From UHGV virus genome UHGV-0124386: a stretch of 51,920 nt of DNA. One strand, given 5' to 3'. A model generated the notes under the pieces. The model worked only from the letters and a program-made list of their open reading frames with translations. It was not told the origin of the DNA and did not search any database. Below are positions 7,474 to 16,423 of this stretch, in pieces. Positions within the stretch are counted from its first letter, which is position 1, and every line of letters begins with the position of its first letter. The position numbers were made by a program, and so were the translations under genes. The stretch comes from a virus.

Positions 7474-7731
7474 TCATCCCTCCGGCAACATCACTACATA
7501 GACATCACTGAATGCATCAAGACGACAAACAAATCCTTTATCCATTAACGCGGCGAAGGCATCATGTACCGTATGAACAGGAAGTTCACACATTGCGGCT
7601 ACTTCTTTGCGTGATGCATCATGTACCCGTCCTTTGTTATCTGCCTTTTCAGCCAGAGCCATTAAGACAAGTTTTTGAATCGGGCTGTTAAGTTTTACGT
7701 TCCATACTTCATTCATCATGTGCATACTCAT
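7474..7731 (-). CDS. HTH DNA-binding regulator at Cro/CII position (85 aa from ATG 7731; ORF track extends to TTG at 7809)
   Basis: Strong SD AGGAGA 7 nt upstream of ATG at 7731; HTH-like segment SRKEVAAMCELPVHTVHDAFAALMDKGFV; first gene of the leftward operon. Confidence 0.5.
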   Translation of the reverse strand: MSMHMMNEVWNVKLNSPIQKLVLMALAEKADNKGRVHDASRKEVAAMCELPVHTVHDAFAALMDKGFVCRLDAFSDVYVVMLPEG

Positions 7732-8036
7732 CGTGTTTTCTCCTATGGTTAGAGTGAACGCGCGGGCGGGCATCCCATTAGCATTAGATAGCAGTGACTG
7801 ACCGCTCAACAGATCCCGCCGTTGCGTGATATTTGTTTTTCGCTTCGCAGCGACACCGGATTTTTAAAGAGCTTAAGGTAAGTGCCTTTTTGTGCCTTCC
7901 GTTATCTTTTTCCTTGCGTCTTTGCAAGTATGGCCTTACCTTGTCTGCAAGTTTACAAAATGGAATTTTAAGATCAAGGCTTAAAATACACGTTTTGTGA
8001 CTTGCATCAAACTTTTTGAGGTTATAGGGTAGCGAC
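7732..8036. promoter_or_regulatory. divergent immunity control region between Cro-like gene and CI-like repressor
   Basis: About 300 bp non-coding; contains inverted repeat ATTTTAAG-N7-CTTAAAAT (about 7964-7986) extended by ACAAAA/TTTTGT arms, a GTTTACAAAATGGAAT motif copy (7951-7966) and a TTGCAT -35-like hexamer near 8002. Confidence 0.55.
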
Positions 8037-8684
8037 ATGAAAACAAAATGGTATGACTTAGCAAAGCAGCTCATGCGGGCGCAGGGCATGAGCCAGGATT
8101 CGCTCGCGGATCGTATGGGGATAACTAAAGGCGGCCTGTCACACTGGCTGAACGGTCGCCGAGAGCCAAATCTTGAAGATATTGCGCGGATTATGCGCGA
8201 GCTTGGTCGTCGGCAGTTTACTGTTACACATGATGGCATGGTCATTGATGATTCTGTTTCTAATACACTTCAGGCCGTGCCGCCGCGTGATTTAGGTAGT
8301 TACCCGGTTATTGACTGGAAGGACACAGTAAACAATATGGATGACGCAAGGCGTTCAGCATTACGACACGTTACGACTAGCGTTATTTGTTCAGATGACA
8401 GTTACTGGCTGGTTGCCAAAGGTGAATCAATGAACGCGCCGCAGGGGTTGAGCATCCCGGCGGGGACGATGATACTTGTGGACCCGCACGCGCCAGCTAT
8501 TGACGGCAAACTGGTTATAGCCCAGCTTGAGGAAGGGCAGATACCGACGTTTAAACAGTTGATTATTGATGGAGGTCAAAGGCTTTTACGTTCGCTCAAT
8601 CCGCTGTATCCGCCAATCCCTATGAATCCAGAATCAAAAATTATAGGCGTGGTGGTTGATGCGAAGATCGTAAACCTGCCATAA
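8037..8684 (+). CDS. CI-like repressor, HTH (XRE) + S24 LexA-like peptidase domain (215 aa)
   Basis: N-terminal HTH (QDSLADRMGITKGGLSHWLNGRREP), C-terminal S24 signature GESMNAP with downstream Lys; followed by terminator. Confidence 0.85.
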   Translation: MKTKWYDLAKQLMRAQGMSQDSLADRMGITKGGLSHWLNGRREPNLEDIARIMRELGRRQFTVTHDGMVIDDSVSNTLQAVPPRDLGSYPVIDWKDTVNNMDDARRSALRHVTTSVICSDDSYWLVAKGESMNAPQGLSIPAGTMILVDPHAPAIDGKLVIAQLEEGQIPTFKQLIIDGGQRLLRSLNPLYPPIPMNPESKIIGVVVDAKIVNLP

Positions 8685-8690
8685 ACATGA

Positions 8691-8715
8691 GCCGCCGGAT
8701 GGCGGCTTTTCTTTG
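8691..8715 (+). terminator. rho-independent terminator after repressor gene
   Basis: GCCGCC-GGAT-GGCGGC stem-loop followed by TTTTCTTT. Confidence 0.7.
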
Positions 8716-8807
8716 CCTGAAGAACACCAAAACGTAAACAGAAAACGTTACTTATTGTTTAAATATCAATAGCATATAAAATATTTTAAAAAAGTATACA
8801 AAATGGA

Positions 8808-8836
8808 TTGACTCGATGTTTTACGGGGCGTATATT
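8808..8836 (+). promoter_or_regulatory. sigma70-like promoter (pL-equivalent) TTGACT-17 bp-TATATT
   Basis: Hexamers with 17-bp spacing read directly; flanked by inverted repeat TTGACTCG...CGAGTCAA (8808-8845) and preceded by a GTATACAAAATGGA motif copy. Confidence 0.5.
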
Positions 8837-9090
8837 GCGAGTCAAAGGAAGGGCGCAGGTAACAAAAGCAACTTCCTGGCACTTTAAAAATCAGGCTTAA
8901 CACCTTGTCAACCGTGGAGTAACTCCCCGATGGGGGACCGAAAGCGGCACTGATAACAAGGCGCATGGGGTGTTTAAAGCGTTACATCCCCCACGAAACC
9001 GCACGCAAGGCGACGAGTCAGCTTGCTTGGAGTGAGCAAGGTCACGCCGGGAACGGCGATGATTGCGGGATTAGTTGCAAGATGTTAAGC

Positions 9091-9128
9091 CGCTCATTAA
9101 CAATCTGGTCAGCCGCTGGAAGTGCGGC
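9091..9128 (+). promoter_or_regulatory. candidate nutL-like site (boxA-like CGCTCATTAA plus boxB-like hairpin GCCGC-TGGAAGT-GCGGC)
   Basis: boxA consensus CGCTCTT(T)A resembled at 9091-9100; 5-bp stem hairpin with purine-rich loop 11 nt downstream; lies in the leader of the N-like gene. Confidence 0.35.
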
Positions 9129-9184
9129 AATTAACGAAGATGATTTTTTATTAAGTATCATCAAGGATATACGGAGATCAGATT

Positions 9185-9475
9185 ATGAGCGTTACAATTA
9201 TATATGGTAAATGTGATAGCAAAATGAATGCCAGGGAACGCAGAAGGATAAAAAGAGAAAACGAAAGAAAATCATCACCTGCAATCAATAAAACAGACAA
9301 TGTGGATAAAGCTATTCGATTTGCAAACGAGGAAAGATGCAAACCGAATGGCATTAAAGAGCATCGCAAAGGTGCGGCAAAATGGTATGCGGAAAACGAA
9401 AGCGGCAATTACTACCACGCAACACAACCGCGTAGTCTAGGGGAAAAACCCCTGGATAAAGTACGCTACAGATAA
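9185..9475 (+). CDS. N-like transcription antiterminator with arginine-rich motif (96 aa)
   Basis: N-terminal arginine-rich motif NARERRRIKRENERK resembling the boxB-binding peptides of P22 and lambda N; first gene after repressor/promoter. Confidence 0.6.
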   Translation: MSVTIIYGKCDSKMNARERRRIKRENERKSSPAINKTDNVDKAIRFANEERCKPNGIKEHRKGAAKWYAENESGNYYHATQPRSLGEKPLDKVRYR

Positions 9476-9505
9476 TACAAAATGTAAACTTTCAAAGGTG
9501 ACATT

Positions 9506-9625
9506 ATGGTTGTTCAGGCGCTTCAATTCAAACTGGCAGTAGCGGAAATGCTTCACGATGCCGAAATGTGGAGCGCCGCGAATAAAGCCTTATACATAGT
9601 GTTAACAGCACGGGAGATTAAATAG
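9506..9625 (+). CDS. small protein (39 aa) translationally coupled to erf (arf-like position)
   Basis: Hand-translated MVVQALQFKLAVAEMLHDAEMWSAANKALYIVLTAREIK; SD AAAGGTGA; stop overlaps erf GTG start (TAGTG). Confidence 0.35.
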   Translation: MVVQALQFKLAVAEMLHDAEMWSAANKALYIVLTAREIK

Positions 9626-10266
9626 TGAAAACAGAGTTACATAAAAAGCTATGGGCGATTCAGCAAACGCTGAACGCGCCGAAAAATCAGCGTAATAATT
9701 TTGGTGGATATAATTACAGGTCGGCGGAGGATATTTTAGAGGCGGTTAAACCACTGCTTCAAAATATCACGCTGACTGTTAGTGATGAAATTGTCCTGAT
9801 CGGCAATCGCTATTATGTGAAAGCAACGGCGACGCTAAGCGACGGTGAAGACGTAATAGCGGTAACTGCTTATGCCAGGGAGGAAGAAAGCAAGAAGGGT
9901 ATGGACGCCAGCCAGCTAACAGGAGCAACATCAAGTTACGCGCGTAAATATGCTTTGAACGGTTTATTCTGTATAGATGATGCTCGCGATCCTGATACTG
10001 ATGCTTACGCGAAGCAGACAGGCCAGCAGCCGCGACAACAGAAAAACCCACCAAAACAACAACCGCAGCAGAAGAAAGCGCCGCCAAATCCTGATGAAGT
10101 GTTAGCACGTTTCTGTGATGCAGCAGCGAAAGCGCAGGACGCTAACAAGCTGCGTGAAATATTTGGCAAATGCTGGAAATTACTACCGGAAGGATCGGAG
10201 CATCGAATCAAGGCAAAAGATGTTTATGACATCCGGGTAGCAGAGCTTAACGGGGAGATGGGTTAA
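9625..10266 (+). CDS. erf: ERF-family single-strand annealing protein (213 aa, GTG start)
   Basis: ERF-like N-terminal region (FGGYNYRSAEDILEAVKPLL); Q/P-rich linker; position next to ssb. Confidence 0.75.
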   Translation: MKTELHKKLWAIQQTLNAPKNQRNNFGGYNYRSAEDILEAVKPLLQNITLTVSDEIVLIGNRYYVKATATLSDGEDVIAVTAYAREEESKKGMDASQLTGATSSYARKYALNGLFCIDDARDPDTDAYAKQTGQQPRQQKNPPKQQPQQKKAPPNPDEVLARFCDAAAKAQDANKLREIFGKCWKLLPEGSEHRIKAKDVYDIRVAELNGEMG

Positions 10267-11935: not shown

Positions 11936-12257
11936 ATTCCACAAAGCGTATGACGCTAACACAAACAAGCTATCACTATTTATCGAATTCGAACGCCGGA
12001 TCGTGGTAGCGCCTTGGTCGCGGCGCTTTAATGACGCCGCCGGATGTAGACAATTCGCGGTCGATATGCTGTTACGCGGCTGCGGCCTTATGCGTCCGCT
12101 ATCTGATTTAAAACGAATGATGCCGGGATCGTTCGGTCAGATTGATGAAATAGAAATAAGCCCGGAAGAACTGAAACGTGAGCGTGATTTATTCCTTTCA
12201 AGCGAAGGAAACCCGTTTAATTCAGAAACTGAAATGAAATGGCATCATCCACTATAA
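11925..12257 (+). CDS. hypothetical protein (110 aa)
   Basis: ORF track. Confidence 0.4.
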   Translation: MKIKFHKAYDANTNKLSLFIEFERRIVVAPWSRRFNDAAGCRQFAVDMLLRGCGLMRPLSDLKRMMPGSFGQIDEIEISPEELKRERDLFLSSEGNPFNSETEMKWHHPL

Positions 12258-12889
12258 GGGTAAATATTATGAACAATATCAAAACGGCTTATTCACTCGG
12301 CAGCGAAGGCATGTTAATTACTCGCTACACAGAGGACGCGAGCTTTCACGAAGTGGTAACTAAGGATTATCACGAAGTTTTAAAAGATATGGAAGCAGGA
12401 GTGTATGACAGTGACTTAAATCTGGCGCTACAGATTGTTGATATTATGATGGATGCATCAATCCGCGATTACGTGTCTTTAAGCATGGAAGAAAAAACAT
12501 CGGTAGCGCGTTATGTGTTCTGCCTCACTTTCGTAAGACGCATGGAGGAGGAATTCGGACGCGCACCAGTGCCGGAAGATGTTGATCCGCTCGCGTTCGG
12601 AAGTGCTGTTATTTTCCCGTTGAACAAGGATCGGCTTGGCAGTGTTTCACTGCATTCTATGCGCGCCCTGATGAAAAAGGTCTTTGAGGTTAAGATGTTG
12701 CAGAAATTTATTGAGGAAGGACACGAAGAAGTGAACGTTAAGGCGTTTATTCCGGTGCTTTACGGAAATTTTGTTGGCGATGATATGCGCGCTAATGAAT
12801 TAGGCGTACAGGCGGCTATAGCTACGCTTAACGAAGCAATGAAAAGTGCACAGCCTATTCATGAACAGGAAAAACGTGTACTGCATTAA
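12239..12889 (+). CDS. hypothetical protein (216 aa; alternative start at MNNIKTAY)
   Basis: ORF track. Confidence 0.45.
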   Translation: MASSTIRVNIMNNIKTAYSLGSEGMLITRYTEDASFHEVVTKDYHEVLKDMEAGVYDSDLNLALQIVDIMMDASIRDYVSLSMEEKTSVARYVFCLTFVRRMEEEFGRAPVPEDVDPLAFGSAVIFPLNKDRLGSVSLHSMRALMKKVFEVKMLQKFIEEGHEEVNVKAFIPVLYGNFVGDDMRANELGVQAAIATLNEAMKSAQPIHEQEKRVLH

Positions 12890-13500: not shown

Positions 13501-13693
13501 ACATTACATGGAATGGAAAATTCCAGAAGCAGCAACAAAGGCAGCGCCAGGAAATGTTTCTGGCGTTTATTTTTATATGGATGGCAAATGGTATTTCGGC
13601 AGCAGGCCGGATCGCTACTATCAAGAAATATGCAAGCCTCACGTATGGGATATTAAAGAGCGCGTGAAAGGCGGGGTAATTGAGGACGTTTAA
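13490..13693 (+). CDS. hypothetical protein (67 aa)
   Basis: ORF track. Confidence 0.35.
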   Translation: MKFKHYMEWKIPEAATKAAPGNVSGVYFYMDGKWYFGSRPDRYYQEICKPHVWDIKERVKGGVIEDV

Positions 13694-16264: not shown

Positions 16265-16423
16265 AGTTTACAAAGTGGCATCATTGTGTGATGCGGATCA
16301 CATAATGGCGCTTTTTGTCTTGTTTGGGGGTATCCATTTTGTATACTTCAAGCAAACAAAATGCTCTTTAAAAATCCGGCAGCGCTGAAATGCGTAGAAA
16401 TCACCTGAAAAGGAGAGAGCATT

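Follow-up and report, generated by a model that had tools for sequence, protein, structure and literature searches.

The early leader of an mEp021-group coliphage: an N-like antiterminator gene, its nut site and a 213-nt insert between two copies of boxA

Phages of the mEpimmI group, to which mEp021 belongs, are Nus-dependent and non-lambdoid (PMC11893012). As summarised in that paper, which cites Valencia-Toxqui et al. 2023 (Arch Virol 168:92), early antitermination in mEp021 has been shown experimentally to be mediated by the N-like protein Gp17, with green fluorescent protein (GFP) reporters of read-through and a gp17 deletion, and three nut sites are assigned to Gp17, of which nutL and nutR1 lie upstream of the repressor gene and of gp17, respectively, and nutR2 lies downstream of a cytosine methyltransferase gene. 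Among these, nutR1 is the most variable, and in Gp17 itself arginines 17, 19, 20 and 24 do not vary and R21 hardly does (PMC11893012). Here we compare this system with positions 8808–9184 of virus genome UHGV-0124386, whose full 51,920 nt we refer to as the window. We put at roughly 0.8 the probability that this region is the 5′ untranslated leader of an early operon headed by the gene for an N-like antiterminator (a Gp17 orthologue), that it includes nutR1, and that it carries a non-coding unit of 213 nt. The N/nut part is a rediscovery, since the system has already been published for the mEp021 group, and the initial annotation, made from the letters of the window, had interpreted it correctly. 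The 213-nt insert, a second boxA-like copy that comes with it and the resulting polymorphism of long and short leaders are not mentioned in the accessible literature on the group, and the sequence of the insert is absent from the searchable literature.

The N/nut locus in the window

Judged by its sequence, the window is a temperate coliphage of the mEp021 (mEpimmI) group. Nucleotides 8690–9480 are 92–96% identical to Escherichia phages MagusPhagus, mEp010, mEp515 and mEp021; the same stretch matches mEp013, mEp044 and mEp554 in two pieces only. The mEp021 record is annotated, in order, with the repressor (gp15), a terminator, a 37-aa hypothetical gp16, a 96-aa hypothetical gp17, Erf and SSB, and the MagusPhagus record names its own 96-aa product 'anti-termination protein N-like'.

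The gp17 orthologue of the window (9173–9475, plus strand) consists of a GGAG Shine-Dalgarno sequence at 9173–9176 and an open reading frame (ORF) of 96 aa at 9185–9475. Its product is 93% identical to mEp021 Gp17 and matches PHROG 271, 'anti-termination protein N-like', with E = 1e-12. Pfam returned no match, the lambda-N family included, and a PDB sequence search gave no meaningful one; more distant N relatives were not found in GTDB, and a protein-alignment search of IMG/VR gave nothing below 68% identity. Residues 15–29 (N15–K29) of the protein form the arginine-rich motif NARERRRIKRENERK, in which R17, R19, R20, R21 and R24 occupy the published Gp17 positions. The gene therefore has the hallmark of a lambda-type N/nut system, in which the first gene of the early operon encodes a small, basic protein whose N-terminal part carries an arginine-rich motif, and the presence of such a gene here had been correctly called.

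The only promoter-like site on the plus strand within 7700–9700 is a predicted sigma-70 promoter at 8808–8836, with TTGACT at 8808–8813, a 17-nt spacer and TATATT at 8831–8836 (10 of 12 matches); it is the promoter given in the initial annotation. The −35 and −10 hexamers hardly vary among relatives, with one TTGACT to CTGACT variant, and the spacer is constant in length and variable in sequence at many positions, which is the pattern expected of a working promoter. Transcription would start near 8843–8844. Counted from 8843 to the ATG at 9185, the leader is ∼342 nt long, in agreement with the structured leader of ∼340 nt proposed earlier, and its predicted fold (−122 kcal/mol, z = −4.6) is more stable than any of 100 shuffled versions.

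An extended boxA 17-mer, GCWCWTTAAMAATCHGG, occurs four times in the 51.9-kb window, where none is expected: at 7872–7856 on the minus strand, at 9092–9108, at 16363–16379, and at 8879–8895, a copy that we call boxA′. At the first three of these sites, a short GC-rich hairpin follows boxA after 2–3 nt. In the site at 9092–9128 on the plus strand, boxA GCTCATTAACAATCTGG (9092–9108) is followed by the spacer TCA and the boxB hairpin GCCGC-UGGAAGU-GCGGC (9112–9128). Both parts had been singled out before, boxA as CGCTCATTAA at 9091–9100, and both are substantiated by the repeated 17-mer and by boxB stems that covary among sites and relatives. The nutL-like site (7840–7872, minus strand) reads GCTCTTTAAAAATCCGG-TG-UCGCU-GCGA-AGCGA and is flanked by the repressor gene on one side and the leftward genes on the other, and the nutR2-like site (16363–16395, plus strand) reads GCTCTTTAAAAATCCGG-CA-GCGC-UGAAAU-GCGU. 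Scored against the boxA consensus GYTCTTTAANA (PMC5725501), the nutL and nutR2 copies match at 11/11 positions, the nutR1 copy at 10/11 (GCTCATTAACA) and the nutR1 copy of short-leader relatives at 11/11. Nut sites are thus found on both divergent early transcripts and upstream of terminators, nutL on the minus strand and nutR1 and nutR2 on the plus strand.

Because a MAFFT alignment gave no structural register across nut sites, the boxB stems were compared by folding each one. The nutR1 stem occurs in the window and its relatives as GCCGC/GCGGC, GCUAC/GUAGC or UGCAC/GUGCA, the nutR2 stem as GCGC/GCGU or ACGC/GCGU, and the nutL stem as UCGC/GCGA. Pairing is retained in these six stem sequences, and every variant forms a hairpin at the same offset from boxA; the stem of one lineage (L038) contains a mismatch. 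The loops are of the type U-GNRA-U/A (GAAA, GCGA or GCAA), except that the common form of nutR1 has GGAA with one further G. The site at 9092–9128 is present in long and short leaders and with both types of N allele, and it has more variants than nutL or nutR2. On this comparison of sequences, it is the published nutR1. In the window, the nutR2-like site lies 7.3 kb downstream of nutR1. The counterpart of 9092–9128 in mEp021 is 12225–12261. The nutR2-like site of mEp021 comes after the cytosine methyltransferase gene and the terminator TERM_4, and 7,947 bp separate its boxA copy from the nutR1-type one; this spacing fits the 'more than 7.9 kbp' by which nutR2 is reported to lie downstream of nutR1. 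The mEp021 GenBank record and the 2025 paper on the group seem to number genes with a shift of one: the methyltransferase is mEp021_33 in the record (L099, 19315–20073), and the paper's gene upstream of nutR2 is 'gp32'.

Two further observations concern nut-like sequences. A third perfect match to the boxA consensus (GCTCTTTAATA), at 13651–13661 on the minus strand, lies inside an 84-aa minus-strand ORF near the plus-strand terminator at 13543–13567; no boxB-like hairpin was seen after it, and it is probably a chance match. In one metagenome contig (L093; OQVL01004386.1, ∼6822), identity of the leader ends at the boxB loop (…GCCGCTGGAAG), after which comes unrelated sequence that has no match in the window; this is either a chimeric assembly or a rearranged prophage.

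A 213-nt unit between two copies of boxA

Alignment of the regions upstream of the N-like gene in 43 IMG/VR relatives separates two leader forms that the initial annotation had missed. The long leader, of 347 nt, is found in 35 contigs and in mEp021, mEp010, mEp515 and MagusPhagus. The short leader is found in ten contigs and in mEp013, mEp044 and mEp554, and measures 133–135 nt where the N type is the common one; in one contig (L045) it has 109 nt. The two forms differ by exactly 213 nt. This unit, present in 35/45 IMG/VR relatives and 31/35 Escherichia coli prophages and so lacking in a quarter of the former, consists of the boxA-like copy at 8879–8895 and a GC-rich domain of 198 nt at 8894–9091. 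In the short form, a single consensus boxA starts 37 nt after the inferred transcription start; in the long form that position is occupied by boxA′ (GCACTTTAAAAATCAGG, plus strand), so that the insert is bracketed by boxA′ and the nutR1 boxA. boxA′ was likewise overlooked before. It is identical to the nutL/nutR2 boxA at 15/17 positions, matches GYTCTTTAANA at 10/11, and is essentially invariant among long-form relatives. It is thus strongly supported that the leader is long because the 213-nt unit sits between its promoter-proximal part and nutR1. Both leader forms occur with both N alleles (the 93% and ∼70% identity types), indicating that the insert assorts independently of the N allele.

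The insert was never found outside this locus, nor in more than one copy per genome, whether the search covered complete E. coli genomes (5,426), the plasmids of PLSDB and phage records (50,697), as done with BLAST, or IMG/VR, metagenomes and GTDB representatives. The metagenome scan added 11 copies, all nearly identical and all from the mEp021 phage group. When elements were sought by these ends alone, whatever their interior, nothing but the 35 long-form contigs came up. Four matches from a GTDB 20-mer scan were set aside as chance, their flanks being only ∼29–31% identical. No Rfam match rose above noise at E values up to 10, whether a 2.2-kb stretch or the leader alone (8840–9190) was searched, and ARAGORN found nothing in the leader.

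The insert differs from its surroundings in composition, at 56% GC against 35–43% in the neighbouring sequence, and in diversity. In a set of 31 distinct sequences, variable columns make up 10.6% of the insert, compared with 30% in flanking non-coding DNA (Fisher p = 2e-7). It is the least variable non-coding stretch of the immunity region. The mean pairwise difference in its core (8894–9019) is 0.006, compared with 0.022–0.026 at codon positions 1–2 and 0.148 at position 3 of the repressor gene; counted as variable columns, core and repressor positions 1–2 do not differ significantly (6.3% versus 10.4%, p = 0.23). The block of low diversity begins at boxA′ and ends at a helix that closes the domain, and both immediate flanks vary at 22–30% of columns.

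The 198-nt domain (8894–9091) is predicted to fold on itself, at −79.6 kcal/mol and z = −3.9. Its closing helix pairs GGCUUAACA (8894–8902) with UGUUAAGCC (9083–9091), 9 bp that end at the nutR1 boxA, and continues inwards with 8908–8912/9074–9078; the consensus has 9 bp, a loop and 5 bp (+5 bp), and the window has ∼18 bp with a mismatch and a bulge. The interior is made up of helices 8913–8917/8991–8995, 8925–8928/8933–8936, 8967–8973/8984–8990, 8999–9003/9064–9068, 9022–9028/9034–9040 and 9041–9049/9054–9063, the last capped by a GNRA loop. Upstream of boxA′ lies a 5′-proximal hairpin, GGAAG/CUUCC (8847–8876, plus strand, arms 8847–8851 and 8872–8876), found where it had been proposed. It is 100% paired in relatives, with one G-C to G·U change, has 6 bp in the mEp021 type, and encloses a loop that varies and carries indels. 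Two hairpins proposed within the domain exist at slightly different places: the CCCC-GAT-GGGG hairpin, CCCCGATGGGG, is at 8925–8935 (rather than 8926–8936), and the CTTGCT-TGGAGTG-AGCAAG hairpin is at 9022–9040, 9 nt from the 9031–9049 first given. We also note a hairpin at 9045–9058 (CGCCG-GGAA-CGGCG, or CCG-GAAA-CGG in the mEp021 type) whose GNRA loop alternatives (GGAA/GAAA) resemble those of boxB and which could be an extra Gp17 contact.

Comparison of relatives supports parts of this fold. A consensus model built on 21 distinct sequences has 63 pairs, with 99.8% of cells paired, and 9 of the 11 variable paired columns keep pairing everywhere. Compensatory changes are confined to the 9022–9040 helix, CUUGCU(U)-GGAGU-(G)AGCAAG on the plus strand. 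In RM9245, STEC308, E21845 and L059 its stem reads AUCACU/AGUGGU, with three pairs changed on both sides and a U-A to U·G change, all still paired; the chance that four changed pairs would all stay canonical is ∼0.02. Four independent one-sided changes stay paired through G·U only, which fits an RNA of the plus strand and not its complement. A further hairpin (GAUGAU…AUCAUC, 9139–9162, plus strand), which lies between nut and the ribosome binding site, is not conserved: it is deleted in RM9245-type leaders and disrupted in L022. Two other pairings were discarded. One, between the boxA/spacer region (9092–9110) and the start region (9176–9190), is part of the minimum-energy fold, yet mEp021, L035, L039 and the RM9245 type cannot form it intact. 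The other, an RNAalifold helix (8878–8883/9107–9114), is broken by two sequences and would occlude boxB, and was removed from the model.

The insert overlaps the ORF annotated as gp16 in mEp021 (8965–9210 in the window, plus strand), which is 37 aa long in relatives and 81 aa in the window and which we judge not to be a gene. The stop of this frame at 9076–9078 is TGA in every other relative and TGC in the window and an identical IMG/VR contig (L003), where the longer frame runs through nutR1 and overlaps the start of gp17; the same C at 9078 adds a G-C pair to the closing helix. Variable columns at codon positions 1, 2 and 3 number 7, 3 and 5, with no excess at the third. The RM9245-type changes would be radical replacements, of LA by IT, S by I and QG by WC, and they keep the RNA hairpin. 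Neither Pfam nor PHROG gave a match. These patterns strongly support the conclusion that the 213-nt unit does not look protein-coding and that gp16 in GenBank is a mis-annotation.

Possible roles of the insert

By orthology with mEp021, the nut part of the leader can be expected to work as follows. Transcription would begin at the promoter at 8808–8836 and yield an RNA that carries nutR1; Gp17 would bind boxB through its arginine-rich motif, and together with host Nus factors on boxA would make RNA polymerase resist downstream plus-strand terminators such as those at 13543–13567 and 16281–16308. A similar site (nutL) would act on the leftward transcript, and a third (nutR2) further downstream. 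Since nutR1 ends only 44 nt upstream of the Shine-Dalgarno sequence, translational autoregulation by N and Nus factors is also plausible; autoregulation of this kind is cited for lambda N, and a boxA-mediated form for suhB (PMC5725501).

For the insert itself, we tentatively suggest, at odds well short of even, that it is a functional cis-acting RNA module, not described before, within the nut site. Its anatomy suggests that it would act as a folded RNA on the sense transcript, with the closing helix placing boxA′ beside the true boxA and boxB at the base of one helix. A boxA beside the 16S rRNA stem has been proposed to hold the upstream arm near the polymerase until its helix partner is made (PMC4807359). 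By analogy, Nus factors might load early on boxA′ and keep the 5′ arm at the polymerase for as long as it takes to transcribe the 3′ arm, helping the helix to close. The domain might then act in cis on the gp17 message, through folding, stability or processing, and so set the timing or strength of Gp17 synthesis and of antitermination at nut, or it might be released as a stable RNA.

Several observations weigh against this reading and against parts of the assignment on which it is built. The short-leader phages mEp013, mEp044 and mEp554 are viable isolates, so the insert is dispensable, and its low diversity could come in part from recent spread by recombination. Of the 63 predicted pairs, 53 never vary, which leaves most of the fold without a check from covariation, and the three double changes all belong to one clade and may be a single event. 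In the E. coli prophage of WCHEC025970 (L102), C8896A breaks the third pair of the closing helix, the only such change among the copies examined, and changes at positions 9078 and 9080 leave the middle of the helix weaker in most relatives. By energy, the minus strand folds equally well (z = −4.0). boxA′ and the nutR1 boxA each have one off-consensus position, and their binding by NusB/NusE is a prediction. Finally, equating 9092–9128 with the published nutR1 relies on its position, its presence in all relatives and the reported spacing.

A serious rival, although we consider it rather unlikely, is that the 213-nt unit is a neutral relic of insertion or recombination, either a small element with terminal inverted repeats that inserted into boxA and duplicated it or the product of unequal exchange between nut sites. 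Its ends do form a terminal inverted repeat, GGCTTAACACCTTG/CAAGATGTTAAGCC, of 14 nt and 93% complementarity (8894–8907 and 9078–9091), as in miniature inverted-repeat transposable elements (MITEs). Direct repeats resembling boxA flank the unit, its base composition differs from that of its surroundings, its presence or absence among relatives is independent of the N allele, and the short-form isolates are viable. Self-pairing ends would keep such a unit harmless to nut, and its uniformity would reflect recent spread. However, there is one copy per genome, always at this locus in all databases scanned, where MITEs would be dispersed, and no element has the same ends and a different interior. 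The 17-nt flanking repeats share only 13/17 positions while the interior is nearly invariant. As a target duplication they would be unusually long and diverged. In addition, the borders of the low-diversity block coincide with boxA′ and the closing helix, beyond which variation rises at once, and stem substitutions preserve pairing.

It is unlikely that the insert is instead cut out as a separate stable RNA, an idea raised in the initial annotation, to serve early in infection as a trans-acting regulatory or anti-defence RNA; the cut would be made by RNase III in the closing helix, or else RNase E or RNase P would be responsible. The domain is closed, compact and highly conserved, its primary sequence is conserved beyond the needs of its stems, as in an RNA that contacts a partner, and the lambda N leader is a known RNase III substrate. 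On the other hand, the closing helix of most relatives, 9 bp, an internal loop and 5 bp, is short for RNase III, for which a lambda-type N leader would offer some two turns of near-continuous double-stranded RNA, the leader holds no terminator or U-tail, and no Rfam relative was found. Complementarity of at least 13 nt to the rest of the window is absent, and 12-mers and 11-mers occur at the level of chance.

We regard it as very unlikely that the conserved block works as DNA, as an extra looping operator, an origin or a protein-binding site, or through an antisense transcript of the minus strand. The equal stability of the minus strand, a weak minus-strand promoter-like site at 9088–9059 and the extreme conservation of primary sequence would all be accommodated. 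The block nevertheless lacks both iterons and the candidate operator motif TACAAAATGG described below, the four one-sided changes and four invariant pairs that are G·U on the plus strand would be A·C mismatches on the minus strand, and the compensatory changes point to a folded single strand. Finally, that the region encodes small proteins (gp16 of 37 aa in mEp021, three small coding sequences in MagusPhagus) is scarcely credible: coding sequences are annotated in the GenBank records and an ATG at 8965 opens a frame, but it has no convincing Shine-Dalgarno sequence and no Pfam or PHROG match, shows no third-position excess, tolerates radical replacements where the RNA hairpin is preserved, and has lost its stop in the window, continuing through nut into gp17.

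Neighbouring elements and comparison with described systems

The promoter is set apart from the repressor gene (8037–8684) by an intrinsic terminator at 8689–8708 on the plus strand (8-bp stem with 6 G-C pairs, T-rich tail; TERM_1 in mEp021), which parts repressor transcription from that of gp17. The 8-bp inverted repeat TTGACTCG…CGAGTCAA noted around the promoter is present at 8808–8815/8838–8845. Read by eye, it is kept at 8/8 positions in most relatives, 7/8 in about ten and 5–6/8 in a few, and at 6/8 in mEp021. This partial conservation makes it a poorer operator candidate than the invariant TACAAAATGG (8797–8806, plus strand), which adjoins the −35 hexamer and is a candidate operator half-site. 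With at most one mismatch, TACAAAATGG occurs 26 times in the window against 5.6 expected, a count reached in 0/100 shuffles. Copies near control regions lie at 7954–7963, ∼7990–8001 (inverted), 8042–8051, 8797–8806, 16269–16278 and 16334–16343, which places the motif in each of the two early control regions and to both sides of the terminator that closely precedes nutR2. Others are paired, as inverted copies ∼26 bp apart (21693/21719 and 37779/37805), on the same strand (12916/12940) or inverted at a wider distance (41019/41090). The motif may be an operator for the repressor or a Cro-type protein, or a dispersed regulatory repeat; the accessible literature gives no definition of the Rep021 operators.

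Between nutL and the repressor gene, the divergent control region contains a large imperfect palindrome (7946–8006; 27-nt arms, 70% complementary, 7-nt spacer) that holds two inverted ACAAAAYG motifs. Directly after gp17, a 39-aa ORF (9506–9625) has a match to PHROG 34942 (E = 3e-30) and a weak one to the family of Kil septation inhibitors (phrog_2055, E = 0.0014), recalling the lambda pL operon.

The main value of the analysis is that it confirms a known system and that boxA, boxB and the arginine-rich motif had been called accurately from sequence alone. The proposed chain of early promoter, leader, nut and N-like gene is correct, and the locus is orthologous to the mEp021 Gp17/nutR1 system. 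The two share the gene order repressor, terminator, promoter, leader, gp17, erf and ssb, with 92% nucleotide and 93% protein identity, equal arginine positions and three nut sites at the described places, and for the nut/N part there is essentially no difference between them. The insert is a modestly interesting RNA element not described before. Natural isolates with long (mEp021, mEp010, mEp515) and short leaders (mEp013, mEp044, mEp554) exist in one laboratory collection, which together with the existing reporters makes a role of the insert in N-type antitermination directly testable. If it is a functional cis module, it would add a regulatory insert of a new type to what is in other respects a classical N/nut switch.

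The lambda pL–nutL–N leader, like those of P22 gene 24 and phi21 N, resembles this locus in its repressor-controlled early promoter, its nut site of boxA and boxB, and its small protein with an N-terminal arginine-rich motif. Nus dependence and a structured untranslated leader are also shared with lambda N, as is a nut site near the start codon, here close enough, we infer, for translational autoregulation by N together with the Nus factors. The lambda boxB has a 5-bp stem and a GAAAA/GAAGA pentaloop, whereas the stems here are of 4–5 bp with a U-GNRA-U/A or GGAAG loop, and there are three nut sites rather than two. In lambda, the structured segment cleaved by RNase III lies between nutL and N; the structured segment here is upstream of boxA and boxB, between two copies of boxA.

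In suhB-type regulation by boxA (PMC5725501), as here, boxA lies in an untranslated leader within ∼80–90 nt of the start codon. The boxA of the present leader matches the consensus at 10/11 positions; it differs in being coupled to boxB and a phage N-like protein, and the outcome in mEp021 is antitermination and not repression. The arrangement of the insert, bracketed by boxA, is best compared with the boxA beside the 16S rRNA stem (PMC4807359), as an analogy and not as membership of the same class. Relative to rRNA, the enclosed RNA is 198 nt rather than 1.5 kb, boxA′ is off consensus at position 3 and there is no boxC; in both, a structured RNA is enclosed by a long-range helix, and a boxA-like element adjoins the upstream arm of that helix on its 5′ side.

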